Origin: a virus
UHGV virus genome: UHGV-1384413
Strand: one strand, 5' to 3'
DNA length: 64,000 nucleotides
The notes beneath the pieces were generated by a model, which saw only the letters and a list, made by a program, of their open reading frames with translations, ran no database searches and was not told the origin of the DNA. Shown piece by piece: positions 7,243-62,508 of the stretch (position 1 is its first letter; each line of letters opens with the position of its first letter). The position numbers and the translations under genes are program-made.

Positions 7243-7256
7243 TAAAAGGCCTCCGC

Positions 7257-8018
7257 TTACAGTTCCATAAAGTTTTCTACGATGTCAATGAATGTTTTAT
7301 CAGAGAAAGCGTCAACAGCCCCGTTAAACCAAACTGGGATGCCGCGATCCTCATACTGGTAAATGTCACTACGTGAAATGCCATTCTCCCCTAAATGCTG
7401 TGAGTCGTATTTGTTAACGATCAGCAGTTTGGTCCCCTTATTACAGGCAGGGAATAGCTCCCAGTTAAAATTGATAACTGTGTTGGAGCACCCTATAAGG
7501 ATAACCATATCATTGCTCGTCAGAGAAGTCAACAGGTCATACATGTCTGTATACTTTGGAGCTACTTCTCCGAAGAACACGACATTAGGCTTAACCCAAG
7601 TATACTTGCTTGCATCTACCTCAGAGTATCCAATGTCTTTAATGACGTTACTCCCTTCATCATCCTCGTAGACTATTTCTGGCAAATATCCGTGGACATG
7701 TAAAATATCTTCATGTTTTACACCAGCACGCTCCAGCAAATCATCTACATTGGTTGTCAGGTTGATCACGCGACCAGACCAGCGGGAATACCATTCAGCG
7801 ATCCGGAGATGTGCAAGGTTAGGATCAACACTGCCCAGAGCTACACGCCGTGCATTGTAAAAGTCATGAACCTTATAGTAGTTCTTGGCAAAGGTGTGGA
7901 TGTTACACACCTCATCGATGCTGAAATTCTCCCACATTGCAGTGCCACCAGATCGGAAAGTTGGGATACCAGATTCAGCGCTCAAACCAGCACCGGAGAT
8001 AATGATCAGTCGTCGCAT
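7257..8018 (-). CDS. Sir2-family (sirtuin-like) NAD-binding protein
   Basis: 253 aa; GAGLSAESGIPTFR, TTNVDDL, VHGY, KPNVVFFGE, IGCSNTV and LLIVNK match sirtuin motifs in order; no CxxC zinc-ribbon insert. Confidence 0.6.
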   Translation of the reverse strand: MRRLIIISGAGLSAESGIPTFRSGGTAMWENFSIDEVCNIHTFAKNYYKVHDFYNARRVALGSVDPNLAHLRIAEWYSRWSGRVINLTTNVDDLLERAGVKHEDILHVHGYLPEIVYEDDEGSNVIKDIGYSEVDASKYTWVKPNVVFFGEVAPKYTDMYDLLTSLTSNDMVILIGCSNTVINFNWELFPACNKGTKLLIVNKYDSQHLGENGISRSDIYQYEDRGIPVWFNGAVDAFSDKTFIDIVENFMEL

Positions 8019-8026
8019 AAGTGTCC

Positions 8027-8377
8027 TCAGTAGATGTTTTGTTTAATCTCTATTCCAAACTTTTTAAACGAGTCAGCAGCAAGCATGAATTTACGAGCAG
8101 CTGATGGGTTAGAAGTATGCACGAAAATCTTCACGTTGTCAACTACAGGAGGCTTACCAAATATAAATTTTTCCTCCAGCATAGATAGGCAATCGTACCC
8201 TTCAAATACCTCTCCAAGGTCGTTGTCCATGTGCCACTCAGAAACGCGCCTGTAGAGCTTTCCCTTATCGTTAATAAAATCCATAAACTCAGAGGAATTC
8301 TTTAGCCAAAGAGCATCTGGGAGCCCATAATTTGACGGATCTCTCAAGTCATCCAGCCACACAATCAACTTCTTCAT
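8027..8377 (-). CDS. hypothetical alpha/beta protein, receiver-domain-like pattern (speculative)
   Basis: 116 aa; MKKLIVWLDDLRD..HTSNP..K pattern; translationally coupled (ATGA overlap) to the RNA ligase gene upstream. Confidence 0.35.
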   Translation of the reverse strand: MKKLIVWLDDLRDPSNYGLPDALWLKNSSEFMDFINDKGKLYRRVSEWHMDNDLGEVFEGYDCLSMLEEKFIFGKPPVVDNVKIFVHTSNPSAARKFMLAADSFKKFGIEIKQNIY

Positions 8378-9288
8378 TGCATATAGTCCTCGTTGTGGAA
8401 ATAGTAGTCAAGTATCTCACGACGTTCTTGCTCCAGGAGGCAGTTCCACACATCTTCTGTGTAATTGCTACGAATGAAGTTTACCATGCCATAAAACTCT
8501 TCGTCAACACGTTTAAAGATATCATCATCCCAAATCTTCCAAGCTTTACCCCTCATTACGGCCTTCCGTGCCAAATAGTATGGAGACTTGATCTTCAGCT
8601 GCAAATCATAAGGGTAGTAAGGCTTACGAATCATATACCCTTCACCTCTTGTTTCTGCAGCTAATTCTTTTGCATAGCTGAACGGAATTTCACGCACAGT
8701 GTGAGGACGTTTTGCACCAAGGTATTTGGCAATCCCATCTAAAGCTGCTTCTGGTAGCATTATTCCAGAATCATTATATCTGCAACCTATCAAATATGCG
8801 CCATGATCTTCCTGAACAATATGCGGATCTGAAGGGTGGCAAATTTCAAACATGAATGTCATGTTTTCATGGCCCATAACCCTCTTGATAAGATCTAAAT
8901 TACCACATTGCTCCTGGATTGTTTCTTTTGCGAGGTTACAATATGGAGAATCAAGAGACCCGGTTGTTGAGAACAATAGTTCACCTTTATGAGATGATAC
9001 CACACCAAGGAATCCGTTCTTTTTCTCTACCGCCGTCACAAGTTTATTGTCAGGCAGGTTGGTGGAATTTTCTCCCAAGTTAAACACTTTTGTGAAGGGC
9101 CATGCCACAACATTTCCTTCATTACCGACAACAATGCCTCGGCACTCCAGCAAACGAGGAGACAAATGCCATAAATTGTTGTAGAATACTTTTCTGGCAT
9201 ATTTATAGATCTTTAACCCAAGATCCGGGTAATATCTGCTGGTTACAAGACCTTTGTCAACTAGGTCGTCTGCATTAAAATACTTCAT
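8374..9288 (-). CDS. ATP-dependent RNA ligase-like nucleotidyltransferase (Rnl2-like)
   Basis: 304 aa; motif I EKKNG (Kx[DN]G), motif IV-like EGYMIRKP and motif V-like LKIKSP, as in T4 Rnl2-type ligases recalled from memory. Confidence 0.6.
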   Translation of the reverse strand: MKYFNADDLVDKGLVTSRYYPDLGLKIYKYARKVFYNNLWHLSPRLLECRGIVVGNEGNVVAWPFTKVFNLGENSTNLPDNKLVTAVEKKNGFLGVVSSHKGELLFSTTGSLDSPYCNLAKETIQEQCGNLDLIKRVMGHENMTFMFEICHPSDPHIVQEDHGAYLIGCRYNDSGIMLPEAALDGIAKYLGAKRPHTVREIPFSYAKELAAETRGEGYMIRKPYYPYDLQLKIKSPYYLARKAVMRGKAWKIWDDDIFKRVDEEFYGMVNFIRSNYTEDVWNCLLEQERREILDYYFHNEDYMQ

Positions 9289-47366: not shown

Positions 47367-47397
47367 TTGACTATTGTTACAAAATTTGGTAAAATAC
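47367..47397 (+). promoter_or_regulatory. sigma70 promoter with extended -10
   Basis: TTGACT 47367-47372, 17 bp, TGGTAAAATA 47388-47397. Confidence 0.55.
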
Positions 47398-47428: not shown

Positions 47429-48919
47429 GTGGCTAAGTATGGATTGACAGAGGCTGGTTTCGTTATACCAACCCTAAATGACCTAATCGTTGAAACTAAG
47501 CAAAGCCTGATCCGTGCTTTTGGCGAAAACTTCAACGTACAGAGTAACTCCGTTGCAGATAAGCTGACCACTATCTTCAACGAGCGAGAGTATCAACTTA
47601 TTCTTATGGCAGCATCTGTATACGCATCGCAGACGCTGTATGGGGCAGAAGGTATTTACCTGGATGAGCTTCTTGGAAGACAGGGTATTTACCGAAGAGG
47701 CCGTTCTAAATCATCAGGTACCTGCCAGTTGACAATCAACACAACTGTGCCGTACAATATGATTTATGATTCCAAAACTTATACACTGGACAGTGGCAAC
47801 TTTGTTCTTAGCAACGATGTGCAGGTGGCGGGAAATCTTATTGCTCACAGAATAAACGCTCCAGACCTAAGAATTGGGAAATACAACTTTCAAATTACCA
47901 ACCAGACAGACGGAAGTATCAAAACAAAAAGTCTGGTTTTAACAGATAAGGCTCTGGACTCTTCTGATTTGCCAAGCTTTTACGGCGAGATTAAGCAATT
48001 CATTGTCGATAATACAACCCTGCTGAATGATGATTTAATTCAGATAGATATGTTGACAGGGACGTTGTGGATAGGGTACAATTCGAATCTTGATCAAGTT
48101 GGACTTAATAGTAGGGTAGATTTCAGAGTATCCCCGATTGTAGGGGAAAGAACTATCACCCTAGATGTTATCGCTAACGAGGCTGGTGAGCTGTCAAGAG
48201 AGGCAGAAACCGTGACAACAATGTCACCTACTCCCAGCGGATTTATCAAGCTTACCAACCGAGAAAGATTCAATGAGGGCAGGGATGTTGAGAAAGACTC
48301 TGAGTATCGCCTAAGAGCTTCCAGCACTAAGCAGTTAACATCTAAAGCTACCCGCCCTGCAATTCTTAGCGCTGTAAGCGAGGTGAAAGGTGTTGAGAAA
48401 GTAAGAGTGTTCTCCAACAACACCGATAAAACGGATGCGAAAGGTATACCACCTTATAAGTTTCAAGTGGTGGTGTTTGGTGGTGCAACAGAGGATATCT
48501 GTCAGGCGCTGTATCAAACCATAGCTTGCACAAACAGAACTTATGGGAATATCTTCTACGATATTACCACATCAGACGGTCAAACTGAAAGGATTTATTA
48601 CTCCAAGGCAAATACCTACCGCCTAGATGTAAGAATTACCTACTCAGGTGCTGCGCTTTCCACAACCGAAAAAGATGCCATTGTAGAGGCTCTTTTGCAG
48701 GTTGTTAACGGACTGGATGTTGCAGATACGTTGTACAATATCCAATTGGTTGGTGCTGCATCAGCTGCTGTGTCAATAGGCAGATTTAACAGACTTGTAA
48801 TTCAAGTCAAACCTGTGGGGGCCTCTGATGAAGCTTACACTACAAACGATATTGTTGCAAACATGACTGAGGTGTTTGACCTAGACGAAAGTAATATAAC
48901 TTTCCAACAAACTATTTAA
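47429..48919 (+). CDS. baseplate J-like wedge protein (P2 gpJ / T4 gp6 family; GTG start)
   Basis: 496 aa; N-terminal region and C-terminal AKGIPPYKFQVVVFGG..YRLDVRITYSGAA resemble Baseplate_J proteins. Confidence 0.5.
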   Translation: MAKYGLTEAGFVIPTLNDLIVETKQSLIRAFGENFNVQSNSVADKLTTIFNEREYQLILMAASVYASQTLYGAEGIYLDELLGRQGIYRRGRSKSSGTCQLTINTTVPYNMIYDSKTYTLDSGNFVLSNDVQVAGNLIAHRINAPDLRIGKYNFQITNQTDGSIKTKSLVLTDKALDSSDLPSFYGEIKQFIVDNTTLLNDDLIQIDMLTGTLWIGYNSNLDQVGLNSRVDFRVSPIVGERTITLDVIANEAGELSREAETVTTMSPTPSGFIKLTNRERFNEGRDVEKDSEYRLRASSTKQLTSKATRPAILSAVSEVKGVEKVRVFSNNTDKTDAKGIPPYKFQVVVFGGATEDICQALYQTIACTNRTYGNIFYDITTSDGQTERIYYSKANTYRLDVRITYSGAALSTTEKDAIVEALLQVVNGLDVADTLYNIQLVGAASAAVSIGRFNRLVIQVKPVGASDEAYTTNDIVANMTEVFDLDESNITFQQTI

Positions 48920-48930
48920 GGCGGTGAGAT

Positions 48931-49617
48931 ATGGCAGAGATTAAGTCGGATGTCAACCACATCCACACTCTGCCAGATTTTGTTCAGGGAGGTCTTGATT
49001 ACCTGCCTGGGGATTTTCTGGCTGAGAAGGTTAATTTAGTCACATTCTTAACCGTGTACCTTAAAAGGTTGGAGAATGTTGATAAGATGCTGGTAGGTTT
49101 GGCTGAAGGAAGATTGCTTAACAATGCCAGCGGAAGATACCTTGATGAAGTTGGTAATCAACTTGGTATTCTTAGGAATGGGCTTTCAGATGCTGATTTT
49201 CGTGCTACGCTGATTATTCAGCAGGCAGCATCATCAAGAGGTGGTACTCGCGAAGATGTCATCTCCACCTTACGGCAGTTGTTCGGAAGAGACAATTTCG
49301 ATACGTGGAAAGGTGACAACTTCAGATTTGACATAAATATTAGAAAAACTTGCTTCGACATATTACAGTCCATCGATCAAATCTTAGATATGCTACCATT
49401 ACCTTGTCATTTGCGTCTTACAGAGTCGCAAGGGCAAGCTTTTGGTTTTGAAGGGGACTCTACAGCTCTCGGCTTCGGGTCGGTGTGGGAAGAAAACCAG
49501 TTCGGTGTCGGTGGGTTGGCTACTTTGTTATATGTTCCTGACGTAAGACCTGATTGGGATACCACAACTATTTATTGTGAAAGTATTACAGTAAACGCAA
49601 CTAGACAGGAGGGTTAA
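48931..49617 (+). CDS. baseplate protein, P2 gpI / Mu gp48-like
   Basis: 228 aa immediately after the J-like gene; ..LDYLPGDFLAE.. N-terminal pattern and gene order match tail protein I. Confidence 0.45.
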   Translation: MAEIKSDVNHIHTLPDFVQGGLDYLPGDFLAEKVNLVTFLTVYLKRLENVDKMLVGLAEGRLLNNASGRYLDEVGNQLGILRNGLSDADFRATLIIQQAASSRGGTREDVISTLRQLFGRDNFDTWKGDNFRFDINIRKTCFDILQSIDQILDMLPLPCHLRLTESQGQAFGFEGDSTALGFGSVWEENQFGVGGLATLLYVPDVRPDWDTTTIYCESITVNATRQEG

Positions 49618-51689
49618 TGGCAACAGCTGTTTTTAAACCTTACCGTGATTACTCTACAATGGCTGCACGGTTTCATTACCGCACAGTTCAGGATACTGCA
49701 GTTCCGGGTAGGGATTATGATCATGTTGAGGGCGATGTAACTATCCCGGTTGGGGCAACCAGTATTGAGATCCCTGTAGAAATTGTTGACAAATTGCCAA
49801 ACAGGTTGCCAAGAAGCTTCTTTATGGAGTTTTCATCAAACTCCCAAGGGGTTATGATTGGAACACAAAGAGCGAAATGTACAATAGTTTCAGATGAGAA
49901 TCTTGACAGAATATCTTGGGATACCGTTGAGGAGAGAATGTTTCACCCAAGATACTGGGTTACAACCACACAGCAGACTGAAAGCACCTGTATTGTTGCG
50001 GATAATAACTGCTGTATTAACCGTTTAGTGTCAAGAACATATGGAGGCATGGCTGGGTGCATTTGGGAAACAGTTGACAAGTATGACCATTTCGGCATTG
50101 GATTTGATGATCACTACGAGATGAGAAACACCAAGCTTTGGTTCAGAATGTCAATAACCAATGCCAGCAACTTCTCCACCCCTGAAAAGATGATTATGAC
50201 TGTAGACCTTGTTGATGGTACAATCATCTATGTTCCTTTAGCTCAATATGCTGTCAGCATCTCAGAGGATAAGAATGTTGCAGAAATTCATATTGATTTC
50301 GAGGACTGCGTCGGGATGGACCAGAACAACAACATGATGGGTGTTGATCCTCGGCAGGTGAGAAGGATTTTAATACCGCTTATGCCTAAAGATTGGGTAG
50401 GTAATAGCACAGACCCGAGAACGGAAAATGTAGAATGTGAGTTGCGTCTAGATCTTCTTCAGCCAGACACAGGCTGGAAAATGATGCAACTTAACAATAT
50501 TCAGGTGAAAGAACACGATGTTGGGATCTGCACAGCATATGACGATATGTGGAACGTATCCCCTTTAAGGGTGTTGAGTAATATCAAGCGTCTGGGCTAT
50601 ACAGGAACCATAAACCATTATGTTGGTATGAGCCATTATTATGACTACACATGGTCAGGAACCCAATGGTCTATAAACAAAACAGGAGCTCTAAACGCTG
50701 CAGCTTATAAATGGCATGATGATTTTATGTACAATGCCAAACGGCATGACTTCGACGTTATGCAGTCTGTAAGCTTTGAGCTTTATAGCGATGCCTGTCC
50801 GTTGGAATGGACCCAGAGAGACTGGAACGATAACTATGCTAAAACAGGCTATACGCCTTGCAGTTACCTCCTGTCTCCAACCATTGAAGAGGGCATGAAT
50901 TTCCTTACTGCAGTATTTAAGAATTTTGCATCAGCCGCTATAAGAAACAACCTGCCAGTGATTATGCAGATTGGTGAACCGTGGTGGTGGTTCAATACCG
51001 ATACCCGTAAGCCTTGTATTTATGACTACCCTACAAAGCAGGCGTTTTATGATGAGACTGGTGAATATGCACTAGACATTGGGACTATTGACGATCCTAA
51101 AACTGGCGGTGTTTATGACAAGTATGTAGCATTTTGTCGTGGTAAGCTTGGCGCTCGTATTGCAGCTATTTCAAAGGCAATAAAAGCACACGCTGCATCA
51201 GCTCAGATGACAGCTTTACTGTTTTTCCCCACTATTATGGAAACCGAGCTTACGCAAAAACTGAACCTTGCTGACCAATATAAAAAGGAAGCAGGTGCTC
51301 TTGATTTCTTCTGCACTGAGTGCTACGATTGGGTGATGCAGGGAGGTATTGAAAAGGCAAAAGAGTCTGTAAACATACCTATCGTTAAGTTAGGTTGGAA
51401 ACCGTCTGAAATACAATACCTTGCAGGGTTCGTTCCTAGCAAAGAGCTTGCTCCGGTATATGGCTACGACCCAACCAGGAATTACCAAGAATTTTTATGG
51501 AGATGTATTTGCGGAAACATGGCAACCATAGAGTATAGATACCCTGAGGTAAAACAGTATGTGTGGGCATACCCGCAAGTAATGTCTGACAGCATCACTG
51601 TTACCGCCAGAGATTCTACTGTTCTGCATATGGGGCAGGTTGCTCTGAAAGGGTATGTAGAAGATGTTGTTCCGCCAGACTTCTCATAA
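49617..51689 (+). CDS. tail fibre or spike with N-terminal Calx-beta-like domain
   Basis: 690 aa; GRDYDHVEGDVTIPVGATSIEIPVEIVD fits the Calx-beta pattern; Trp-rich C-terminal domain (IGEPWWWFN) of unknown, possibly enzymatic, function. Confidence 0.4.
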   Translation: MATAVFKPYRDYSTMAARFHYRTVQDTAVPGRDYDHVEGDVTIPVGATSIEIPVEIVDKLPNRLPRSFFMEFSSNSQGVMIGTQRAKCTIVSDENLDRISWDTVEERMFHPRYWVTTTQQTESTCIVADNNCCINRLVSRTYGGMAGCIWETVDKYDHFGIGFDDHYEMRNTKLWFRMSITNASNFSTPEKMIMTVDLVDGTIIYVPLAQYAVSISEDKNVAEIHIDFEDCVGMDQNNNMMGVDPRQVRRILIPLMPKDWVGNSTDPRTENVECELRLDLLQPDTGWKMMQLNNIQVKEHDVGICTAYDDMWNVSPLRVLSNIKRLGYTGTINHYVGMSHYYDYTWSGTQWSINKTGALNAAAYKWHDDFMYNAKRHDFDVMQSVSFELYSDACPLEWTQRDWNDNYAKTGYTPCSYLLSPTIEEGMNFLTAVFKNFASAAIRNNLPVIMQIGEPWWWFNTDTRKPCIYDYPTKQAFYDETGEYALDIGTIDDPKTGGVYDKYVAFCRGKLGARIAAISKAIKAHAASAQMTALLFFPTIMETELTQKLNLADQYKKEAGALDFFCTECYDWVMQGGIEKAKESVNIPIVKLGWKPSEIQYLAGFVPSKELAPVYGYDPTRNYQEFLWRCICGNMATIEYRYPEVKQYVWAYPQVMSDSITVTARDSTVLHMGQVALKGYVEDVVPPDFS

Positions 51690-51701
51690 TCAGGAGATAA
51701 A

Positions 51702-52742
51702 ATGTCAAAACCTAGTTTTCCATTAGAGATTTGGGCAGAGGAGGATCAGGTTCTGCCTAACACCCACAGACAGAACAGGCTACGCCCGATTGATGATTTG
51801 TGGAGAAAAGGTTGGGATCTTGGTCAAAAGCCGTCATGTGAAGAACTTAACTATATTTTCAATATGCTCGGGACTTGGGCAAAATATATTGCTGACGAGC
51901 AGATCCCTGCCCAAGAGGGCCGTTATCTGGTACGTGATAATAACCTGAGCGATCTTTTGAACATTCCTGTTGCCCGTAGAAACCTTGGGATTATTACTAA
52001 GGAAGAGGCAGACGCCAGGTATGTAAAAGTTACAGGCGATACAATGACAGGCCCCTTAGGTTTGCAGCGTATCAACTTTAAAGCTGCCGAGACAGATAAG
52101 GCTTGGATAGAGACAACTATTGGTCCAGATAAGACAACTCTCGACTTTGGGTTAAGTGATAACACTGGGGCGTTTGATGATGGTGGCACATCTACAGTAG
52201 ATGCGTTTCGTTGGAGATTCCAGCCAACTCAGCCAGACATTAATCCAGAGTTCACTTTGATGTACCTGAACGCGATCACGGCTAACCGTGCGCTGTTGAA
52301 AGTGGTAGGTAATGTTGAAGTTGTCGATAACATGCGGTGTAACAACCTTACCATTAGCAGCACAGCAACATTCACCAACTGTAATGTGGCTAGTCAGTTG
52401 ACAGCTGGGTCCGTATATGTTAATGGCGGCGCAAGTTGTGACAGTATGGTTGTAAGAAGCCAGCATTGTGTTGTCGGTAACAGGAATGTGGTGCGCTCTG
52501 TGAATGGAGTGACGGCTAACGGTAACGGAGATGTAACGATCACCATCCCGCAGACAGGGGTACAGGATATCAGAATCGGTGCAAGACTTGTTGATGGTGT
52601 TTCTGAATCTCCAGTTCGCAACGGCTACGTTGTCACAGGTTGGCATTTTGGTGATAAAAAAGAGATGCGTGGTTCAACCTACTGGGCAGGACCTTTACAA
52701 AAACTTGTAAATGGTCAATGGATCACTGTTAATTATGCGTAG
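51702..52742 (+). CDS. tail fibre / receptor-binding protein, paralogue A
   Basis: 346 aa; conserved N-terminus (SFPLEIWAEEDQVLPNT) and C-terminus (LQKLVNGQWITVNYA) shared with the 53755 ORF, divergent middle. Confidence 0.45.
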   Translation: MSKPSFPLEIWAEEDQVLPNTHRQNRLRPIDDLWRKGWDLGQKPSCEELNYIFNMLGTWAKYIADEQIPAQEGRYLVRDNNLSDLLNIPVARRNLGIITKEEADARYVKVTGDTMTGPLGLQRINFKAAETDKAWIETTIGPDKTTLDFGLSDNTGAFDDGGTSTVDAFRWRFQPTQPDINPEFTLMYLNAITANRALLKVVGNVEVVDNMRCNNLTISSTATFTNCNVASQLTAGSVYVNGGASCDSMVVRSQHCVVGNRNVVRSVNGVTANGNGDVTITIPQTGVQDIRIGARLVDGVSESPVRNGYVVTGWHFGDKKEMRGSTYWAGPLQKLVNGQWITVNYA

Positions 52743-52756
52743 ATCGGAGGACTAGC

Positions 52757-53341
52757 ATGAAAATACTTCAAGAGTTTAAACTTTACCAGCCGGGATCTGG
52801 CGAATACTACACCAACAAGGAGACCAAGGAGCTGACTCCTCAGGAGGTTGAGGATTACACAGCATACACTGGATATTTTTTACGTAATGATGATGGCGAT
52901 TGGTATGTGCAATCACGAACACTGCGACAAGAAAATCCAGGCTGTATCTTCCTACTTGTTGACGAGAAGGGTATTCTTAAGACATCTACAGAAGAACCTG
53001 ATGCCTTGTGGCCTGCTCCAGGTCTTCGTGTGGTTATCGCCAAAAAAGAAGAGGTACCAGAAAACATTATGCTCCACCACGACGCTTTGCGTTTAGTTGG
53101 TGATGAATTTGTCACAGACAATGAATTCTTTGTTCAACAGGCAGAGGGTGTCATAGAGACAGAACTTGCTTGGGCTACTGCTAGAATTGGTGCCTATCAA
53201 GACATGATTGACCTTGAATACGATCTTACTGATGACCAAAAACGCAACATCAGAGATTTGAAAATGTACAGGGTAAAACTTCTTGAAATAGATACATCTA
53301 AAGCCCCTGACATTTTCTTCCCGGAACGACCTACCCTCTAA
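52757..53341 (+). CDS. tail fibre assembly protein (Tfa-like chaperone)
   Basis: 194 aa; C-terminal YRVKLLEIDTSKAPDIFFPERP matches the conserved Tfa C-terminal motif. Confidence 0.6.
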   Translation: MKILQEFKLYQPGSGEYYTNKETKELTPQEVEDYTAYTGYFLRNDDGDWYVQSRTLRQENPGCIFLLVDEKGILKTSTEEPDALWPAPGLRVVIAKKEEVPENIMLHHDALRLVGDEFVTDNEFFVQQAEGVIETELAWATARIGAYQDMIDLEYDLTDDQKRNIRDLKMYRVKLLEIDTSKAPDIFFPERPTL

Positions 53342-53352
53342 GAGGAGGTGTT

Positions 53353-53667
53353 GTGGAGTTGGATTTGGCGGCATTGTACGGTATCTGCATGGGTACCGTT
53401 GTCCCGATCTGTGTATGGGCTTTCAACCAGTGGCACACCAAATGGAAAGGCATTTCCAAGAGGTTGGATGAGCTGGAGAAAGACCTCATCTTAGTGAAAA
53501 ATAGCATGGTTACAAAAGATAGACTTGATTCCATTATCGAGACCCGGTTAAGTAAGCTAGAGGCCGATATTAACGACCTTAAGCAAGATGTCAGGACAGA
53601 TGTCTCCGGTATCAGAGCTGATGTGCAAAAGATTTTACACATGCTTGTAGAGCATAGTAAAAGGTAA
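53353..53667 (+). CDS. small membrane protein with coiled coil (function unknown)
   Basis: 104 aa, non-ATG start with RBS aggagg; one N-terminal TMD LYGICMGTVVPICVWAF then charged helical region. Confidence 0.35.
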   Translation: MELDLAALYGICMGTVVPICVWAFNQWHTKWKGISKRLDELEKDLILVKNSMVTKDRLDSIIETRLSKLEADINDLKQDVRTDVSGIRADVQKILHMLVEHSKR

Positions 53668-53675
53668 ACAAAGGT

Positions 53676-53710
53676 CAGAACGGCAAGGATGCCGTTCTTG
53701 CATTTTGTTC
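53676..53710 (+). terminator. rho-independent terminator
   Basis: cagaacggc-aagga-tgccgttctt then TGCATTTTG. Confidence 0.6.
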
Positions 53711-53717
53711 TCTAAAG

Positions 53718-53726
53718 TGTTAAAAT
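53718..53726 (+). promoter_or_regulatory. extended -10 promoter element TGTTAAAAT
   Basis: Variant of the recurring TGnTAAAAT motif; about 30 bp upstream of ATG 53755. Confidence 0.35.
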
Positions 53727-53754
53727 AGTCCTTAAGGAATTTTCTCAGGAGAAC

Positions 53755-54801
53755 GTGATGACTAAACCAGTTATCCCTCTTGATATTTGGGCCAATCAGG
53801 ATGTTGTGCTTGAAAATACAGGAGAGTTGAACAAATCTCAACCGAACAAAGAAGAGAGATTGAAAGGTTGGGATATGACACAAAGGATAGCATGTGAAGT
53901 TGTTAACTTTGAACTCCACATGCTTTCTGCGTGGCTAAAGCATTTAACAGAAGATGTTGTCCCTGGATGGGATAATAGATTCTTAAGGGTCACTAATAAT
54001 CTGGCAGATGTTCCAGACAAAGCTGCTGCACGTAAAGTTCTCAATGTATACTCGCCTGAAGAAATGGATGACCTGTATGTTGACAAGACTGGGGACACAA
54101 TGACCCAGACTCAAACTTTAGGTCTTCAAAGAATCGAGTTTGCATCCGCGTCAACAGACAATGCGGCGATATATACCACCATAACTCCAGACAAGACGAT
54201 GATGGATTTCTGGATTATGGACAACATCGGCGGTGCTGACGGCACGGACCTTGATGATCCTTCTCACCAAATAGACGGTTTCCGTTGGAGATTTCAACCC
54301 TCTGGTGGGCAGCCTGTGTTTTCGGCTATGAAGCTCAATGCTATAACTGCCAACCGTGCAAGACTGGCTATCCAAGGAAATCTTGAATGCAATGATGCAA
54401 AAAGCTCCTCTGCAAATGCTAATGCGGTAACGATACCAAGAGCCACTGTTAATGGACAACAATCCTGCGGCAGCGCTCAAATAGGTGGAAGAGTAGATTG
54501 TAACGATAAAACCGCCAGGGGTCAATATGCAACAGTTGGTGGGAGAAACGTTGTCCGCAGGGTAAATGGTAGTAGCGCAGATAGCAGTGGTAACCTTACT
54601 ATCCCTATGCCTAGTAGGGGTGTTGAAGATGTAAGGATAGCAAACCGCTTCAGAACCACCTACAGAGAATCAAGAGTATACCCTGGGCATGTAATGTGCT
54701 CCGGCAATTACGCCTATAAACACCCGTATCAAGGTGACTATTGGACTGGTGCTATTCAAAAATTTGTAAACGGTCAATGGATCACTATATCTTATGCTTA
54801 A
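53755..54801 (+). CDS. tail fibre / receptor-binding protein, paralogue B
   Basis: 348 aa; N-terminus PVIPLDIWANQDVVLENT and C-terminus IQKFVNGQWITISYA parallel the 51702 ORF. Confidence 0.45.
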   Translation: MMTKPVIPLDIWANQDVVLENTGELNKSQPNKEERLKGWDMTQRIACEVVNFELHMLSAWLKHLTEDVVPGWDNRFLRVTNNLADVPDKAAARKVLNVYSPEEMDDLYVDKTGDTMTQTQTLGLQRIEFASASTDNAAIYTTITPDKTMMDFWIMDNIGGADGTDLDDPSHQIDGFRWRFQPSGGQPVFSAMKLNAITANRARLAIQGNLECNDAKSSSANANAVTIPRATVNGQQSCGSAQIGGRVDCNDKTARGQYATVGGRNVVRRVNGSSADSSGNLTIPMPSRGVEDVRIANRFRTTYRESRVYPGHVMCSGNYAYKHPYQGDYWTGAIQKFVNGQWITISYA

Positions 54802-54810
54802 AGAGGGTAA

Positions 54811-55077
54811 ATGAAATTAACTCAGTTTTTATGGGGGTTGGTTGCGGCATCTGATGACCCTACGAAAGTGTCCCAATCTAAGCTATGGTCAAACATAGGC
54901 ATGGCAGTGATGACTGGGGTGTTTATTCATATGGGGTACAATGATACGCTTCCTGAATGGTATGCGTGGATATACGCACCTTCGGTAGCTTGCCCCCAGC
55001 TTATTAGCAAATTCATCTCGCTCCGGTGGGGTTGCCAACACCCTGACCACGTTAAAAACGAAGAGCAAAAAGCTTAA
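54811..55077 (+). CDS. small hydrophobic protein (function unknown)
   Basis: 88 aa with two hydrophobic stretches (FLWGLVAA, IGMAVMTGVFIHMGY). Confidence 0.3.
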   Translation: MKLTQFLWGLVAASDDPTKVSQSKLWSNIGMAVMTGVFIHMGYNDTLPEWYAWIYAPSVACPQLISKFISLRWGCQHPDHVKNEEQKA

Positions 55078-55086
55078 GGAGAAATC

Positions 55087-56832
55087 ATGGCGCAAGACAT
55101 GACAAGCTTCGAGCAAGCGGTAGATCAAGTAATTGTTGATTCTGAACGTTTGCACTTGATTGTCAACGGTAACGCTGTGGATGAAGTTGTCGTAGAGGAT
55201 GGGACCACTATCCCTACGGTACGAAAAGCCATGCTTGACACCCTTTATTTTAAAACGCCACCAATCCCTTGGGCGTATGGTGCATCCACAACAGTTTTTA
55301 ACCAGTTGTACGAGTTTAAAGGGGATACAGGCACTCAGTGGTGGTACGCCCCAGCAGCATCAAAATCTAACCCGGTTAGGATGCCAGCAGATCCTTCACA
55401 ATCTCCGAACTGGAGATTATACACCGATTCTGCAGTAATGGCAAAATACTACGCAAAACTTAACAGCCCAAGGTTCGAAGGTGACCCGAGAGCACCTACA
55501 CCTCCAATGGATGATAAGTCTGAGTCTATAGCAAACACAGAGTTTGTTGTTGACTATGTGGATAGCATATTTAAAGCCATGGAGGGGATGAAAGTTACTG
55601 TAGGATCTTTGGTGGTAAAAGGTCTTACAGAACTTGCTAACACTATAGTTGGGGGCACCCTTACCTTACACGGACCTGTTAATGGAGCAGATTCTACTGC
55701 ACGCTTCAGGAACCTAATCCTTACGGCAAATACTTCTACACTGACTTTTGCGTGGAGCGATCCTAAGCATGCAGACTGGAGAAGCACAGAGCTGCAACCT
55801 CATGAAGTATCAACTCACAGAGTTATAGCTGACACTATAACTTCTGGGAAACCAGTGGCTAATAACAACGATGTGCATTTTGATGGTCTAGGTAATAACT
55901 TTTTTGACTACGTGTACATTCGCGGTAATGCCATGAAGGCAGCCACCGAACCGACATTGCAGGTTGATGGGACCACCAGGGTTAAGAACCTTGAGGTGAC
56001 AGGGACCGTTACAGGGATAACCTACTCTGTAGATGGCACCATGATCTACCCTAGCTATATTGAAAGCACGGGAGATGCACTGATCAATGGGGATTTAGAG
56101 GTTGGCGGATCTATAGTCATTCGTGGCACAGCATCTGTCCAGAACATATCTTTAAATACTCTGAGGGTGAATGAGCGTGCCACTTTTGAAGGAGAAGGGC
56201 TTACAGCCAACAAAGGTGCAATTACCGAGCTGACAACCACCACTCTAACTGCAACAACTGCAAACTCTGAAAACTGCAACGTTACCAGAAACTTGCAGGT
56301 AAATGGAGATGTTAGTTTAAACGCAGCAGGGACGGGCACCACCTACCTTCACAACCTTGAAATATCAGGTACAGTGACTGGGTGGCTGCCAGACTTCTCT
56401 AATGTCAACTTTGTCTGTAACGGCATTAACTCCAGTGGCAAGATAACCACCTCTCAAGAAATTGAAGCTGGTAAAACTATTACTGCCCCTGCTTTCCATG
56501 CAGGGAAGGTGGAGTTTGACTTAGAGGAGGCTGACGCATCTGGTGGGACATGGACACCTAACGGGCAGGCCAATATGTATGTTGTCCACGCGAAAGGGGA
56601 TTTTACAATAGGGCCATGGCCTGGAACATCGGCTGAAGATAAACCTTACCCGTTCACTGCAATCATCTATGTCATTCAGGATGCTGTAGGCCACAACGTG
56701 ACTTTACACGATAAATATGCCATACTGTCGGCTACTCCTGTTATTAACAACAAAGCCAACAGCGTCACTTTGCTACAATTGACATATTGTGGTGTTGGTG
56801 ATATTGTGGATGTGGTTATTGCACAACGTTAA
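55087..56832 (+). CDS. tail fibre protein
   Basis: 581 aa; Thr/Gly/Asn-rich beta-strand repeats; terminator follows. Confidence 0.45.
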   Translation: MAQDMTSFEQAVDQVIVDSERLHLIVNGNAVDEVVVEDGTTIPTVRKAMLDTLYFKTPPIPWAYGASTTVFNQLYEFKGDTGTQWWYAPAASKSNPVRMPADPSQSPNWRLYTDSAVMAKYYAKLNSPRFEGDPRAPTPPMDDKSESIANTEFVVDYVDSIFKAMEGMKVTVGSLVVKGLTELANTIVGGTLTLHGPVNGADSTARFRNLILTANTSTLTFAWSDPKHADWRSTELQPHEVSTHRVIADTITSGKPVANNNDVHFDGLGNNFFDYVYIRGNAMKAATEPTLQVDGTTRVKNLEVTGTVTGITYSVDGTMIYPSYIESTGDALINGDLEVGGSIVIRGTASVQNISLNTLRVNERATFEGEGLTANKGAITELTTTTLTATTANSENCNVTRNLQVNGDVSLNAAGTGTTYLHNLEISGTVTGWLPDFSNVNFVCNGINSSGKITTSQEIEAGKTITAPAFHAGKVEFDLEEADASGGTWTPNGQANMYVVHAKGDFTIGPWPGTSAEDKPYPFTAIIYVIQDAVGHNVTLHDKYAILSATPVINNKANSVTLLQLTYCGVGDIVDVVIAQR

Positions 56833-56880: not shown

Positions 56881-59800
56881 ATGCTTCCAATCCCTTTGCT
56901 AAAACTTGGTCGTCATTTCCTCGATAAGAGGGGTGGAGTTAAGGAACTTGCTGTTCTGTCATACCCAATAGACAACAGTGACGGTACAAGCACTACAGTA
57001 GCTTATGTAAACAGCTTAGCTATACTTTTTGACGATGGTCAGCTTAATATTACTGGCTATAACAAGTTCGGAGAGTGTCGCACTGGGGATCGTAGCCCTA
57101 TAAACTACCCGAGCGAGACAGCTTGGAATGTTGATCATGTGTGGAGAGCAGACCGTGCGTTTGTGATCCGGACTTTTGATAACCAGTTTTTCTACATCGG
57201 CTGCACTGCAGGTCTTATCGGATCCACTGCGGCAGGTGGTAACGATGTTTGCGTAAACGAGTGGACACCTCTTCCTGAACAGATTGTTAAAGGGTTACAC
57301 CTTGACACGCACCCAGAGCGCCTTGTTGAGGTGATGGGTGGTATTAACAACACTGTTTGGGTTATTGCAGAGGCAGAAGGCACTGGCATACTGAACTTGT
57401 ATGGATCTGGTAACAACACCTACGGATCTTTGCATGTAGATAAAAACCAGCATGCAACTCCTGTAAAGATTGGTGAAACATCAGAAAATCCTGAAACAGG
57501 CCCTTGGAAAAACCCAAGCATTAACTGCGAGGTGCATGATAACTCTGTTATTTTCGGTGGGCCTAGAGGTTTTTGGATTGCTGGATACGACTTTCTGAGA
57601 AACAACAGTAGAAACGACCTTGTTTGGCCCCCTGCTCAGATTACTCGCAACGATTTGAAAGGCATTCCTGCAGATGAGGAGTGGAAAGGATTCATGTGTG
57701 GTCCGAACGGGGCGATAATTGCAACGCAGAGGATGCACAAGCCTAATGATCAGCAGCTTGTTAACGTATTCTACGGGCAAGATGTCTGGGGAGATGATAC
57801 ATGGCGTTCCTTAAATATTACCTACACCCATGAAGTAATAATGGCTCGTGGGTACGGAACAAGTGGCATTTTCTTCAATAATGGCACTAAGCAGTATCGC
57901 GGATTCTCTCGCAACTTATGTAATGATATTGGCGCACAATCTGCAAACAATAACCCTAGGGCCAATTTTATCCACTATCAAGCTCTTGCCACAGCCAAAT
58001 ACGTTGAGCAACGCCTCCCAGTTAGCTGGACAGAGAGTGTTTATTTCCAAGGCATTCACAGAGAAGGTTTTTTAGGGACCTTTACTGTTGTTAATGGTAA
58101 ACTTTGGTGGTCAGGTATCCCAAGGGGAAGTTTTGCAGGTTCTAATAACCTGTTTGGCGGCAGACTTAATAGTCAAGGGTTCACAGAGGTTCCTGAGAAT
58201 TGGTATAAAAATGTCCCAGTAGACAGTTGGGGTGTTGATGATATTTTTGACGTTAACGGTGTTAGCAGTGTTAGCAATATTTACATTGGTGACACGGTCA
58301 AGATGAAATTGAAGCCTCAGCCAGAGGGGGCTACGTTCATTATTGACAAGATTGAACTGGTAAATGCTGCGGGTACGGTTGTTACAGATGCAAATTACCA
58401 ATTCTCCACCAACTGGAACCACGGCGGGGCCAACGAAGTTGTTGTTACACAGTATAACAGGAATGTTAACAGACGTGGCCTGTACTCTGTAAAAATAACC
58501 TATCACGACAAGCATGGCACAGGTAGAACGCACACGACAAGGACTTTGAACTGGAACACCATAGTTCCTGCGTATCCTTCTGACGGTAAGTGGCATACTG
58601 TCGGTAGAAACAAACAGTTCCATGTTAATGACACTGTATACTTCGGGTTGAATGGGACTCAGCCTGCGGTAGAAGGAGATACATCGTACATGGTCCGACT
58701 CCACAGAATGGATGCTGGATCAGTAACTTATGATGTTACCCAAGAGATTTATAATCAGCGACGGAATACCTATAATAACTTGGTGCAGACACAGGCCTTA
58801 TGGGAGTTCAACCCAAACGGTAGAGGTGGTAAAATGCTGCAGGTCAACGAACAAAACGGAACGTCGTTGACTGTCCACGAACACCCAGACCCTTGGCCTG
58901 ATCCTGGAAAACCTCACCCAGGTGCTCGTACACTGAAAATTGTCAGCCATGATGCAGGATATTTCGGAATACGCTGGGAAGCCACAGTAAGATATGCCGA
59001 CGGGACAACAAACAACATAGGGATTACACTCGGCGGTACTAGTGAGGATAACTCGCTGAAAATTGCCTACACCCCTAGAGGTATCTCTGTTGATAATATG
59101 GATGTTGTTCGCAATGGTTACGGCGATGTGAATGTCAAAGTTACTCTTGGCGAACATCTTGGTGGGGAAAGGATCATTATGTATGCCTTTGATCATGACC
59201 CACGAACCGATGGAACTTATGCAAATCAGGCATGGAGTTACCTGATAAATGCACCTGAGCCGAATACTAAAGAGTTCTACTACGGTATGAAGCGAGATGC
59301 GTGCAAGAAAACAGGAACACATGACTGGATTGCTATCTGCGTTAAAGATGAGCGCACAGCTTGGGATGAGCCTGTTAACAGATGGTTCATAGGTATTCCT
59401 ACCCGGAGTGATAAGTATGTCGCAGAGTATATTGTATGCATGGGCGGTACCAACCTAAACATGTGTTGGAACGAAGATGCAAACAAATACTCTGATTATG
59501 ACTATATGAGAGATTACTCTTGTAATCAGTGGTTTAACCAATCAACAGGGTATCCTCCACGTCAGGCGAGAGTAAACCCTGCAATCTTTACAGATACGCA
59601 GGTTTTCTTGACAAAACAGGCCAATGAGGTTCAGACCTTCAAGAACAAATATGACCCTAACAAATGGTTTTATAACTGTTATGGCGCATTTTTCTGGGGT
59701 CCTGGCGAACTGCCTAATGGAGGATCTTGCTTCGAGGCTGCAACTTACGCCAGTGATTACATCATGGGCCAGGTTAAGAAGTATAAGATAATTCCAGGTC

Positions 59801-62508
59801 CTGAAACTCTTGGTAATGCCGTTGACCCTTATATCATCATGACTGCGCTGAGATCAAACATGGACGGGACATCCATGTCTATGCAGATTCCAGTAACAAA
59901 TGGGTACAAACGTGTTGTGATGATTATTAAGTGTGACTTAATAGGTAAACAAGTCCTTGCAGAAAACGGGACCTCCACACATCCTTTTGAGATTGCTCTG
60001 CACTATCAGTTTGCTGACTCACCCTTTTCAGGGGATAAGAGAATATCTGATACAGATGCGCAGCGTTGTAAGAAGGTATTGTTGGGTGCAGGTTGGTGGT
60101 GGTATGAATTTGATTTAACAGACAAATTCACCGACACGTCAAAAGTTGTAACAGGGCTTCGTCTAGACCTTGGCGAGAACATGCACAAAGCTGTTTGTGA
60201 TGGCACCTATGGTGACCCTACAGTATATCTGAAGTATGTCTCTTTTGAGCATCCGGAAGATGTTGTTTACGGTCCAAAACTGAGATTGTTTGGCAGTTGG
60301 ATTGCAAAAGACAGGGTAGGCATGGGTAAAAAGGTAAGAGGGTTCTTAGTTGATGCAGGAACAGAAGACATGCTGGTTAATGCAGTATGGCCTGAATTAC
60401 CTGGGACTCAGTGGAATAACTCAGCCAAGTCTATAAACTGGTTCAACATTCACAGAGCTATGTGGACCACTAACTGCTACTTGTGGAGAGAGCTTAACGA
60501 TCAGGCTTTTGGCTTCGGTAACGGCAGAAGGATGGCGATCATTTGCTGGACAACGCTGCAAAGATGCTATGACCATGATTACGAGATTGGTGGTAGGGCA
60601 TGGAAAAATATCAGGGATAGAATCATAACCAATTTTGCAGACGACAACGGCGGTGGAGCACATAACTTTGGCACAAGCCGACTTATCCATTTGAACGGAT
60701 CCTCAGCCTACAAGAAAGAAGGTTACTCTGGGTCTATGATTGAGTGGGGTTTGGTGAAAGATGCTCGCGTATTGATGGGTCAACAACTTGCTGCTGCAAT
60801 AGGTCCTAACGCAGTGCAGTCTGTTAAGCCAGCGTGGTTCGATATACCAATATGGTCATCTGGAACACCGGGAACTGCGGCAATCAACCCTACCACTGGG
60901 GATTTGGAAATCTCTTGGGAGGACTTAAAGCAGGTTGGCGGCTGGGATAAGACAGGGTACCAGGTGCAATGGTGGAGATCTGACGGATCGTTAGCAGCTG
61001 ATGAGTTTGTTAAGGACAATTTCTACACCATGTCCTCTGCAAAAGCCCAGCAATTGTTTGGTCAGGCCACTCCGTCAACGATCACTATGTCTATGTGTTG
61101 TAAAGACAACAGAACTGGAGCTTTGGGACCAAGGGTTGCTAAAGTTTTCTCAGGTATTAAATGGAATCTCCCTGTTCAAAGTGTTTCATGGAAGCAAATA
61201 GGTGATAACAAGCTACTGGTTACTCCTGCCTGCCAGTTCAACGCAACCCTCAACGTTGATCCGGCTGTTGCAGCAAACTCAGCTAAAGCTTCTGACTTCT
61301 CTGTGTCTAACACTGCTATGGCAGATGTGAGAAAGATTGACACACTGAATGCCAGAATTACCTGTAAAAACACTTATGGCACATTCCAGATCATCAACAA
61401 CTTCACAGATGCTGATTCTAAGGTAGTGAGGACAGCAAGCCAGACTATGCAGTTGGGAACTCTGGCATACTCTGCCTTGATCACTGAACAATCTCCTACC
61501 CTTCAGGGTGGGGGTGTTGGTAAGTTGATCACAACACCTGTGTGGAAGCCAAATGAGTGGGTTGTGTTTGATTTGACTGTAGACTTCTCCAGTGACAATA
61601 ACTGGACATGGGTAAGGAATTGCTTGTCACAGTTGATGGGTGGTCCAAGCTCTGTTAGTGATAGCCACGACTCTACTGACCCGAGCGTGTTCCAGGTGGG
61701 TAAAACTCACCCAGAAACTGGGGCACAGTTGCCTGACAGGAAGTATGCTTTGGTTTGCATCTCCAACGGCAAGGCAGATGTAACCTTCTCAGGGACACAC
61801 ACATATAACGGCACTTACAACTTCTCTAAAAAGTACAGCCTCAAGGCAGGTAACATTGTAGATGAAGTTGGTGCGTTGTATAATCCAGGTAACGGCATAG
61901 GGATTGTGGGCGGTAAACTGCAGATGCAGGAACCTTCTATAACCCCAGCCAACGTGCCTGGTATCAGAAAAACTTGGGAAAGTAGCAATACCAATATTGC
62001 AACAGTGGATGCTACCACAGGACTGGTAACATTTAAGGCTACCGAGAATGTCACCATAAGGTTTGTAGTTACAGATGATGCAGGCCGCAAAACGTCTTCA
62101 ACATCGTTTACTGTCAAACAGATGGCACCTCAGTGGTTTATTTGGGAAGGAAATCCTCTTGACGGGGCTTACCCTAGACCTGCAGGAACGTCTAATATGA
62201 GGGTCTTTACCGGTCCAGTCATGGACAATCCAACCACAACCACCAACCCTGCATTTTTTGGTGCTTACATACCTGAAATTATTGGCCTACCAAGGAACCA
62301 AATACAATTGCTTTTCGGGGCAGGCGTTGATGGTCTAGCCACTTTCGGGTACAGTGACAACATTGATGCAGCCAGAAGCTCCGGTTGGATTGGATTTAAG
62401 TTCCAGTGGAACCCTGGTGGTAGAACATTAGGTCTCGCAAGTATAGGTGTTATGCTGCCTGGCAACCAGCAATACCATCTCGAAGCTTATACAAACTTCC
62501 CTAGTTAA
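56881..62508 (+). CDS. giant tail fibre / adhesin-like protein with Ig-like (Big_2-type) domain
   Basis: 1875 aa; N-terminal Gly/Asn-rich repeats (LYGSGNNTYGSLHV) suggestive of a beta-propeller; Big_2-like segment TWESSNTNIATVDATTGLVTFKATENVTIRFVVTDDAGRKTSSTSFTVK. Confidence 0.5.
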   Translation: MLPIPLLKLGRHFLDKRGGVKELAVLSYPIDNSDGTSTTVAYVNSLAILFDDGQLNITGYNKFGECRTGDRSPINYPSETAWNVDHVWRADRAFVIRTFDNQFFYIGCTAGLIGSTAAGGNDVCVNEWTPLPEQIVKGLHLDTHPERLVEVMGGINNTVWVIAEAEGTGILNLYGSGNNTYGSLHVDKNQHATPVKIGETSENPETGPWKNPSINCEVHDNSVIFGGPRGFWIAGYDFLRNNSRNDLVWPPAQITRNDLKGIPADEEWKGFMCGPNGAIIATQRMHKPNDQQLVNVFYGQDVWGDDTWRSLNITYTHEVIMARGYGTSGIFFNNGTKQYRGFSRNLCNDIGAQSANNNPRANFIHYQALATAKYVEQRLPVSWTESVYFQGIHREGFLGTFTVVNGKLWWSGIPRGSFAGSNNLFGGRLNSQGFTEVPENWYKNVPVDSWGVDDIFDVNGVSSVSNIYIGDTVKMKLKPQPEGATFIIDKIELVNAAGTVVTDANYQFSTNWNHGGANEVVVTQYNRNVNRRGLYSVKITYHDKHGTGRTHTTRTLNWNTIVPAYPSDGKWHTVGRNKQFHVNDTVYFGLNGTQPAVEGDTSYMVRLHRMDAGSVTYDVTQEIYNQRRNTYNNLVQTQALWEFNPNGRGGKMLQVNEQNGTSLTVHEHPDPWPDPGKPHPGARTLKIVSHDAGYFGIRWEATVRYADGTTNNIGITLGGTSEDNSLKIAYTPRGISVDNMDVVRNGYGDVNVKVTLGEHLGGERIIMYAFDHDPRTDGTYANQAWSYLINAPEPNTKEFYYGMKRDACKKTGTHDWIAICVKDERTAWDEPVNRWFIGIPTRSDKYVAEYIVCMGGTNLNMCWNEDANKYSDYDYMRDYSCNQWFNQSTGYPPRQARVNPAIFTDTQVFLTKQANEVQTFKNKYDPNKWFYNCYGAFFWGPGELPNGGSCFEAATYASDYIMGQVKKYKIIPGPETLGNAVDPYIIMTALRSNMDGTSMSMQIPVTNGYKRVVMIIKCDLIGKQVLAENGTSTHPFEIALHYQFADSPFSGDKRISDTDAQRCKKVLLGAGWWWYEFDLTDKFTDTSKVVTGLRLDLGENMHKAVCDGTYGDPTVYLKYVSFEHPEDVVYGPKLRLFGSWIAKDRVGMGKKVRGFLVDAGTEDMLVNAVWPELPGTQWNNSAKSINWFNIHRAMWTTNCYLWRELNDQAFGFGNGRRMAIICWTTLQRCYDHDYEIGGRAWKNIRDRIITNFADDNGGGAHNFGTSRLIHLNGSSAYKKEGYSGSMIEWGLVKDARVLMGQQLAAAIGPNAVQSVKPAWFDIPIWSSGTPGTAAINPTTGDLEISWEDLKQVGGWDKTGYQVQWWRSDGSLAADEFVKDNFYTMSSAKAQQLFGQATPSTITMSMCCKDNRTGALGPRVAKVFSGIKWNLPVQSVSWKQIGDNKLLVTPACQFNATLNVDPAVAANSAKASDFSVSNTAMADVRKIDTLNARITCKNTYGTFQIINNFTDADSKVVRTASQTMQLGTLAYSALITEQSPTLQGGGVGKLITTPVWKPNEWVVFDLTVDFSSDNNWTWVRNCLSQLMGGPSSVSDSHDSTDPSVFQVGKTHPETGAQLPDRKYALVCISNGKADVTFSGTHTYNGTYNFSKKYSLKAGNIVDEVGALYNPGNGIGIVGGKLQMQEPSITPANVPGIRKTWESSNTNIATVDATTGLVTFKATENVTIRFVVTDDAGRKTSSTSFTVKQMAPQWFIWEGNPLDGAYPRPAGTSNMRVFTGPVMDNPTTTTNPAFFGAYIPEIIGLPRNQIQLLFGAGVDGLATFGYSDNIDAARSSGWIGFKFQWNPGGRTLGLASIGVMLPGNQQYHLEAYTNFPS

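Follow-up and report, generated by a model that had tools for sequence, protein, structure and literature searches.

Why a phage should carry two related short tail fibres, encoded almost side by side, is the question raised by the UHGV virus genome UHGV-1384413, of which a stretch of 64,000 nucleotides (the window) was analysed. The two open reading frames (ORFs) concerned lie on the plus strand at 51702–52742, encoding a protein of 346 aa, and at 53755–54801, and their products are here called fibre A and fibre B. The original prediction, which placed both ORFs correctly, took them for a duplicated receptor-binding cassette with swapped central domains. Our analysis leads to a different reading, to which we assign a probability of about 85%, namely that the region is the short-tail-fibre module of an rV5-like (genus Vequintavirus) myophage with two paralogous fibres and one Tfa chaperone, and that the fibres have most likely been sub- or neo-functionalised, since B is conserved under selection and present in virions, yet its tip and N-terminus have changed. 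The statements on homology, synteny, conservation, rates and selection derive from the present analysis, and the literature supplied those on virion presence, on the need for lipopolysaccharide (LPS) Glc I and on where the phi92 fibre is placed; the docking site, the sharing of Tfa, the receptor of each paralogue and the function of the promoter are what we infer.

Fibres A and B align end to end with 153/356 identities (43%; BLASTP E 5e-95), far beyond chance, and the N- and C-terminal motifs that had drawn attention to the pair are found in both. When the segments of A are searched separately, each third matches B, with 38.9% identity for the N-terminal 110 aa (E 2.5e-24), 45.9% for the middle 175 aa (E 1.5e-32) and 44.3% for the tip, i.e., the last 61 aa (E 5e-13). 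The statement that the two proteins differ in the middle is thus contradicted, as the centre is the best-conserved third. The profile of identity in 30-residue windows shows no sharp breakpoints but drifts gradually between 23% and 63%, and at the DNA level the genes are 49% identical with a longest exact match of 15 nt. A mosaic cassette would have flanks far more alike than an unrelated centre, separated by sharp breakpoints, and neither feature is seen here. The model of a duplicated host-range cassette, in which specificity-determining centres were recombined and the ends kept, can draw on the common terminal motifs, on mosaicism known within the protein family, and on a single stretch of low identity at approximately residues 200–235. 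However, this dip falls in a part of the shaft that is rich in insertions and deletions and varies in length in every homologue, Mu-type fibres are known to bind their receptor with the C-terminal tip and not with the centre, and both genes are near-invariant in the genus (90–100% conserved in ~117 Vequintavirus genomes). Already contradicted by the segment-wise comparison, the model is very improbable. What has been duplicated is furthermore the fibre ORF only, and not a unit of fibre plus chaperone.

The identity of the locus is clear from its relatives. Positions 51000–56000 of the window are 95–99% identical in nucleotide sequence to more than 100 rV5-like genomes, and this 5-kb stretch is 95.4% identical to rV5 and 98.8% to ECP32. 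Comparison of the ORF map with the rV5 annotation shows that the gene order matches rV5 from gp34 to gp27, including the succession gp34-gp33-gp32(Tfa)-gp31-gp30-gp29-gp28. Fibre A corresponds to gp33 and fibre B to gp30, and the Tfa gene between them (52757–53341, plus strand, 194 aa) to gp32, with amino-acid identities of 99%, 96% and 99%, respectively. The ORF of fibre B is open from 53755, and the more likely start is the ATG at 53758, giving 347 aa (53758–54801), because an AGGAG at 53747–53751 is correctly spaced, 6 nt from this codon; the rV5 annotation also starts there. In rV5, gp30 and gp33 are 42.3% identical, mass spectrometry of virions detected gp30, gp32 and gp33, and Kropinski et al. 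(2013) proposed recognition of possibly two LPS chemotypes (PMC3606486). Maffei et al. (2021) described the paralogous short fibre pair with its chaperone as homologues of Mu GpS/GpU that lack allelic variation (PMC8594841). The pair itself and its homology to Mu GpS/GpU have therefore been published before, and the finding is real but ordinary. As a side observation, at least 16 GenBank records labelled "Campylobacter phage" (host C. jejuni; MG065661, MG065662, MG065644, MG065682 and others) are 95–99% identical to the locus, and are probably mislabelled or contaminant rV5-like phages.

Both fibres belong to PHROG 4465 (E 4.5e-171 for A and 1e-163 for B). Fibre A is organised as a wedge-docking-like N-terminal domain (approximately residues 1–110), a shaft (~110–285), and a tip similar to that of Mu gpS (~286–346). 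Residues 1–108 match the short tail fibre (STF) of phiTE (PDB 9cuy_c; E 1.5e-19, 73.5 bits), and residues 286–343 match residues 440–501 of Mu gpS (5yvq_A; E 1.4e-6). Fibre B shares the architecture of A, but has a diverged N-terminal domain, with a weaker match to the phiTE STF (E 2.6e-8, 36.8 bits), and a distinct tip (…CSGNYAYKHPYQGDYW…); its sequence alone did not reach E ≤ 1 against Mu gpS. A profile of 30 homologues searched against the PDB retrieves both the phiTE STF (E 7.4e-35) and Mu gpS (E 1.3e-13). Models of the monomers predicted with AlphaFold2 (AF2) are of low confidence, with pLDDT values of 64 and 59, and their use was limited to two things, the order of secondary-structure elements and the lone significant match in Foldseek. 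The models show the same succession of helices and strands, and 5yvq_A is the lone significant match for both fibres (E 4e-7 for A and 1.3e-7 for B). In analogy to their Mu gpS homologue, A and B are presumed to be trimeric.

As for the attachment site, in phiTE the short fibre has an N-terminal joint seated on wedge protein 1 (PMC11972413), and a cryo-electron microscopy (cryo-EM) study from 2026 locates the phi92 homologue gp147 ("fibre III") at the underside of the wedge protein gp145 (PMC13450770). In the window, the orthologue of the rV5 baseplate wedge subunit gp36 (47429–48919, plus strand, according to the rV5 annotation) is by analogy the likely docking partner of the fibre N-termini. 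The RBPseg study reports density for this class of fibre on the BASEL Vequintavirinae phages Bas49 and Bas54, and notes the Mu-like tip (PMC12143355).

The original prediction recognised a Tfa-type chaperone after the first fibre, and this is borne out, including the quoted C-terminus (…IDTSKAPDIFFPERP). The protein matches Pfam Caudo_TAP (E 1e-11) with 45.5 bits against a cut-off of 22.1, over the conserved C-terminal residues 121–192, and PHROG 136 (E 1e-36). In Mu-type systems a Caudo_TAP gene directly follows the fibre gene, as is the case for A; the gene that follows B is gp29, which has no similarity to Tfa, and no second Tfa was found when the 64-kb window was searched with eight Tfa proteins (tblastn). 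According to studies of Mu and Pam3, as summarised in PMC9608196, Tfa binds the fibre through its variable N-terminal domain and drives trimerisation through conserved C-terminal helices. The presence of gp32 in rV5 virions fits a Tfa that remains bound.

Another possibility is that fibre B is redundant and decaying, with no separate function, and a few observations do point in this direction: B evolves faster than A, has lost residues that are otherwise invariant, and lacks a Tfa gene of its own. In Tajima's relative-rate test with Av-05 as outgroup, B has 72 unique changes and A 34 (chi2 13.6), so that B evolves about twice as fast as A. The alignment of 27 non-B homologues has 53 invariant columns; 9 of them are changed in all B-type proteins, and 7 of the 9 are found at residues 19–62 in the docking domain (P19E, I30, W34R, G41, K43R, Y51F and Y62H), which corresponds to the fall of the phiTE match from 73.5 to 36.8 bits. 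Nevertheless, dN/dS within the genus is 0.020 for A and 0.051 for B, i.e., both fibres are under strong purifying selection. Across ~117 records, identity does not fall below 95% for gp33 and 90% for gp30, the ORF of B is intact and is retained in three diverged lineages, and its product is found in rV5 virions (PMC3606486). Selection and proteomics thus already contradict the idea of a decaying copy, which we consider practically untenable.

The arrangement is also old. The layout of A, Tfa, a 104-aa gene and B recurs in two diverged metagenomic lineages, L017 and L015, so that B must be older than their split. Relative to the window, the L017 orthologues of A, Tfa and B are 88%, 78% and 78% identical, and those of L015 73%, 47% and 47%; with only three lineages compared, the divergence of Tfa follows that of B rather than that of A. 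B is accordingly an old extra copy, already in place when the three sampled lineages of Vequintavirus-like phages split. Outside Vequintavirus-like genomes no B-type proteins were found, all other proteins being at most about 40% identical, and a scan of IMG/VR with B returned only four close loci, which served mainly for alignment of the intergenic region.

Relatives with a single fibre show where B was placed. In Avunavirus Av-05, two Seunavirus-like phages, Mydovirus BIS47 and Henunavirus Hena1, the order is STF-Tfa-m104-m157-m88-gp28-like, with the m88 position annotated at 55–89 aa. Fibre B sits exactly where these single-fibre Vequintavirinae genera carry the gene of a 157-aa polytopic membrane protein (m157), the middle of three small genes, and neither m157 nor a remnant of it was found in the window. 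The m157 gene occurs in 107 phage records, including phiTE and CR3, and in 0 Vequintavirus records; Vequintavirus has lost this gene. In the Seunavirus and Mydovirus phages we also note that a gp34-type gene is missing directly upstream of the fibre.

The 87-nt gap between gp31 and gp30 is the largest intergenic gap of the gene block; the corresponding genes in the single-fibre genera overlap by 4 nt, with no gap. It contains a terminator-like hairpin with a 9-bp stem (53677–53698, plus strand), followed by the invariant TTGCATTTT. The 45-nt segment 53668–53712, which includes the hairpin, has a predicted folding energy of −18.7 kcal/mol (z −4.8), and the region is still foldable in four other lineages, L017 and L015 among them, although its sequence has changed. 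A promoter-like element can be read from the sequence at 53698–53727 on the same strand, composed of TTGCAT, a 17-nt spacer and TGTTAAAAT, of the extended −10 type. Within it, TGTTAAAATA at 53718–53727 differs by one mismatch from the rV5 late motif TggTAaAAtA (PMC3606486). With at most one mismatch, the late motif TGGTAAAATA occurs 16 times in the window against 6.25 expected, a number exceeded in 0/100 shuffles. Nearly all copies are on the plus strand of the structural block, at ~15–61 kb (e.g., 23907, 27428, 41570 and 47387), and that at 47387 is 33 nt upstream of the wedge gene. Before B, TG(C/T)TAAAATA and TTGCATTTT are invariant in the window, rV5, L014, L017 and L015. These features suggest that the gap may function as a terminator followed by a promoter for B.

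A hairpin and putative promoter of its own and the replacement of a non-homologous gene would suit an alternative origin of B, i.e., horizontal acquisition from an unsampled Vequintavirinae-like lineage and insertion in place of m157. Neighbour-joining trees (300 bootstraps) were calculated for the full length and for three segments, with A/B sister support of 53%, 1%, 49% and 42%. In the N-terminal domain, A and B are each nearer to single-copy fibres than to each other (distance 1.19 for the pair vs 0.64–0.90; sister support 1%), and A is closer to the Av-05 fibre (48%) than to B (43%), both of which favour acquisition. Weighing on the other side, the donor has not been seen, the next-best matches outside Vequintavirus-like genomes are at most 40%, and among the fibres compared the best match of B is A. 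The full-length tree also joins A and B, albeit as weak sisters, and the approximately two-fold rate of B could alone yield the observed tree. We regard acquisition as a possible but rather doubtful origin.

Recombination, which was part of the original prediction, is real in the family, but what is exchanged is the C-terminal tip, and the cases come from relatives rather than from the window. The Av-05 fibre and the metagenomic fibre P0011 are 98–100% identical up to approximately column 295 and ~40% identical beyond it, and P0014 and P0020 follow the same pattern, near-identical upstream and with diverged tips. At least eight tip types are found behind a conserved RNVVRSVNG…GVQDIR junction, which from these alignments appears to be the natural exchange point of the family, situated before the last ~60 residues. 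In L015, the N-terminus and shaft group by orthology (B/B' 55% vs A'/B' 38%, the primes denoting the L015 proteins), but in the final 60 residues the identity of A' to B' reaches 85%, compared with 65% for A/A' and 36% for B/B', which indicates an exchange between the paralogue tips inside that genome. The tips are distinct (44%) in the lineage of the window, with the B tip 88–95% conserved in rV5 and L017. A separate observation concerns the Salmonella phage birk (L010 1852–4245), a Rosemountvirus of ~52 kb. One fibre there ends in an A-type tip (58% identity across its final ~58 residues), and its gene precedes two Tfa genes, with the lysis cassette coming immediately after them, which shows that tip and junction move between unrelated myophage families.

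At their extreme C-termini, the two fibres of a genome agree (…VNYA/…ISYA in the window and …VQTL/…VQTL in L015), which is consistent with either one shared Tfa or gene conversion. The same agreement could be taken to mean that A and B co-assemble as heterotrimers, so that a single kind of short fibre would be built from two gene products, and the matching lengths, the identical predicted order of secondary-structure elements and the presence of both proteins in virions would be compatible with this. The sequences are only 38–46% identical, however, with differing N-termini and tips, and B appears to have a separate promoter. The L015 case, with homogenised tips and distinct N-termini, is more easily understood as two separate fibres with one chaperone, and we know of no precedent for such a heterotrimer among Mu/P2-type fibres. 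Co-assembly is therefore an unlikely explanation.

For the preferred reading of two functionally distinct paralogues, the following sequence of events can be proposed. The globular N-terminal domain of ~110 aa, homologous to the corresponding part of phiTE, would dock on the baseplate wedge. If Mu gpS/gpU is taken as the model, Tfa would bind the tip with its variable N-terminal domain and promote trimerisation with its conserved C-terminal helices, after which it possibly stays attached. During infection, the lateral fibres would first engage surface glycans, and the short fibres would then bind the LPS core. This binding would trigger contraction, with Glc I of the outer core as the presumed target for LL12 and the BASEL phages; for LL12, a need for LPS Glc I has been reported (PMC7229145). 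A more specific version, in which B is neo-functionalised with a separate baseplate dock and a tip for a second LPS-core chemotype while Tfa is common to both fibres, is tentative, and we would not favour it at present. If true, rV5-like phages would carry two short-fibre rings of different specificity. A linked point is that within-genome recombination, as in L015, can make the paralogue tips more alike or more diverse, which would make the pair a built-in reservoir for changes in tip specificity.

Several points weigh against the preferred reading. The AF2 monomers are of low confidence (pLDDT 64 and 59), and their TM-scores to Mu gpS are low (0.15). In the RBPseg study, cryo-EM fitting at 7–9.5 Å placed one short-fibre model, RBP04 (PMC12143355), and such a resolution would not separate two paralogues that are 43% identical. 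That one Tfa serves two tips of 44% identity is assumed, whereas each Mu tip has a Tfa of its own. Promoter and terminator are predictions at the level of consensus, and with A/B sister support of 53% for the full length and 1% for the N-terminal domain, duplication and acquisition are not separated.

Phages of the rV5 type are among the most often isolated coliphages and are used for O157 typing, biocontrol and therapy cocktails, and these short fibres are credited with their terminal receptor step. Beyond the rV5 literature, we add as hypotheses for specialists that gp30 occupies the slot of a lost 157-aa gene, that a hairpin and a promoter-like element precede it, that its N-terminal domain and tip are derived, and that it evolves at a faster rate; we further add that the paralogue tips have been exchanged in a sister lineage and that a natural recombination junction lies before the last ~60 residues. 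Together, these details provide testable hypotheses on why two short fibres persist, and a cut site for fibre re-engineering.

An 88-aa ORF (gp29, "m88"; 54811–55077, plus strand) does come after the second fibre as the original prediction stated, but its supposed hydrophobicity is weak, with a Kyte-Doolittle maximum of 1.05 over 19 residues. It belongs to PHROG 1322 ("membrane protein"), has no match in Pfam or NCBIfam, and is 50–56% identical to a gene of 87–89 aa that in single-fibre genera likewise precedes the gp28-like fibre. Since an orthologue thus follows the single-fibre locus in related genera, gp29 is not the partner of fibre B, and a role as its chaperone was rejected because gp29 is conserved in genera without B. 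The gene after Tfa, gp31 ("m104"; 53353–53667, plus strand, 104 aa), encodes one transmembrane segment at residues 5–23 (Kyte-Doolittle 1.91), and the following region looks like a coiled coil as judged by eye. It is 33% identical over its full length to the 104-aa gene of Av-05, SEW_6S, GAP31, BIS47 and Hena1, and is kept downstream of Tfa throughout Vequintavirinae. In phi92-like and Phapecoctavirus phages, the fibre and Tfa are followed by a protein of 111–113 aa. This protein, annotated as "lipoprotein" in phi92-like phages, is matched with gp31 by hhalign at a probability of 76%, and it is probably homologous to gp31. In Pfam, gp31 gave only sub-threshold coiled-coil noise, and a search of NCBIfam with the fibres, Tfa, gp29, gp31 and m157 gave nothing above family cut-offs, with three chance-level matches for gp31.

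Across Vequintavirinae, three small genes are seen after the short-fibre Tfa, encoding proteins of 104 aa (one transmembrane segment and an apparent coiled coil), 157 aa (polytopic) and ~88 aa; the set lies at 53353–53667 and 54811–55077 in the window, at 5638–6701 in L003 and at 5650–6719 in L005. The holin of V5-like phages has been described as unidentified in the LL12 paper, and gp31, m157 and gp29 were considered as a holin/antiholin set. The idea was rejected as unsupported, with no evidence found that ties these genes to lysis; gp29 is weakly hydrophobic, no family match was obtained, and the transmembrane screen of the rV5 paper, which picked gp129, likewise counts against it (PMC3606486).

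Other genes of note flank the module. Upstream, the match to rV5 gp34 (49617–51689) is an N4 gp65-like protein with the Pfam TIM-barrel and N-terminal domains of "non-contractile tail sheath protein" and a sub-threshold Calx-beta match (25.6 bits vs 27). Recent papers tie such proteins to ECA/NGR glycan recognition, and as gp34 adjoins fibre A, the presumed primary and terminal receptor-binding proteins would be adjacent. Downstream, the gp28 fibre (55087–56832) has a weak match to Bactofilin (E 0.016), which probably explains the label "polymer-forming cytoskeletal protein" for HMD-6 in GenBank, a likely mis-annotation of a beta-helical fibre; gp28-like orthologues carry the Pfam domains Phage_phiTE_241_N and _C. 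The orthologue of gp27, a giant fibre with immunoglobulin (Ig)-like domains (56881–62508, 1875 aa), appears in the L017 gene calls (7124–9044) as two parts, a gene of 475 aa and a further ORF, which fits the allelic variation of large lateral fibres described by Maffei et al. (2021), unlike the invariant short fibres.

Compared with known systems, the fibre locus of the window shows no substantive difference from that of rV5. Its fibre and chaperone genes are orthologous to gp33/gp32/gp30 in identical order, the paralogues are likewise 42–43% identical and homologous to Mu GpS/GpU, and what differs is only the isolate in which the locus is found. The sister genera (Avunavirus Av-05, Seunavirus PVP-SE1 and GAP31, Mydovirus and Henunavirus) and phi92 with gp147 have a homologous fibre (30–48% identity) followed by Tfa and a 104-aa transmembrane protein, and in phi92 this fibre hangs downward from the wedge protein (PMC13450770). 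They differ in having one fibre rather than two, and in phi92-like and Phapecoctavirus phages the fibre matches at the N-terminus and tip only, with a different shaft. The homology to phiTE STF (PDB 9CUY/9MJN) covers the N-terminal ~90 residues, from which the trimeric joint on wedge protein 1 is built, and takes in the motif PIDDL…KG.D.GQKP..EE.NY. Unlike the fibres of the window, that of phiTE measures 554 aa and includes Ig-like domains besides a long coiled coil, and paralogue B lacks much of the shared motif, in agreement with 36.8 bits vs 73.5 for A.

T4 gp12 is comparable in function, as a baseplate fibre whose supposed role is irreversible adsorption through binding of the LPS core, and an HHpred similarity to it was reported by Kropinski et al. 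(2013) (PMC3606486). No PDB chain of T4 gp12 was matched at E ≤ 0.01 in our sequence and family-profile searches, and homology to the gp12 family was by this measure not found. T4 has a single short-fibre gene, and its product is folded with the chaperone gp57A, not with a Tfa. For Mu gpS (5YVQ), the C-terminal receptor-binding domain (Mu ~440–503) is homologous (profile E 1e-13) and constitutes the sole significant fold match, whereas the window fibres have an N-terminal domain that is of the phiTE/Vequintavirinae type and not of the Mu type. In Mu, there is a dedicated chaperone for each of the two alternative tips (U for S and U' for S'), and switching takes place by DNA inversion. The window, by comparison, has two co-stranded fibre genes, both of whose products are present in virions according to the rV5 data, and one Tfa for two tips that are 44% identical.

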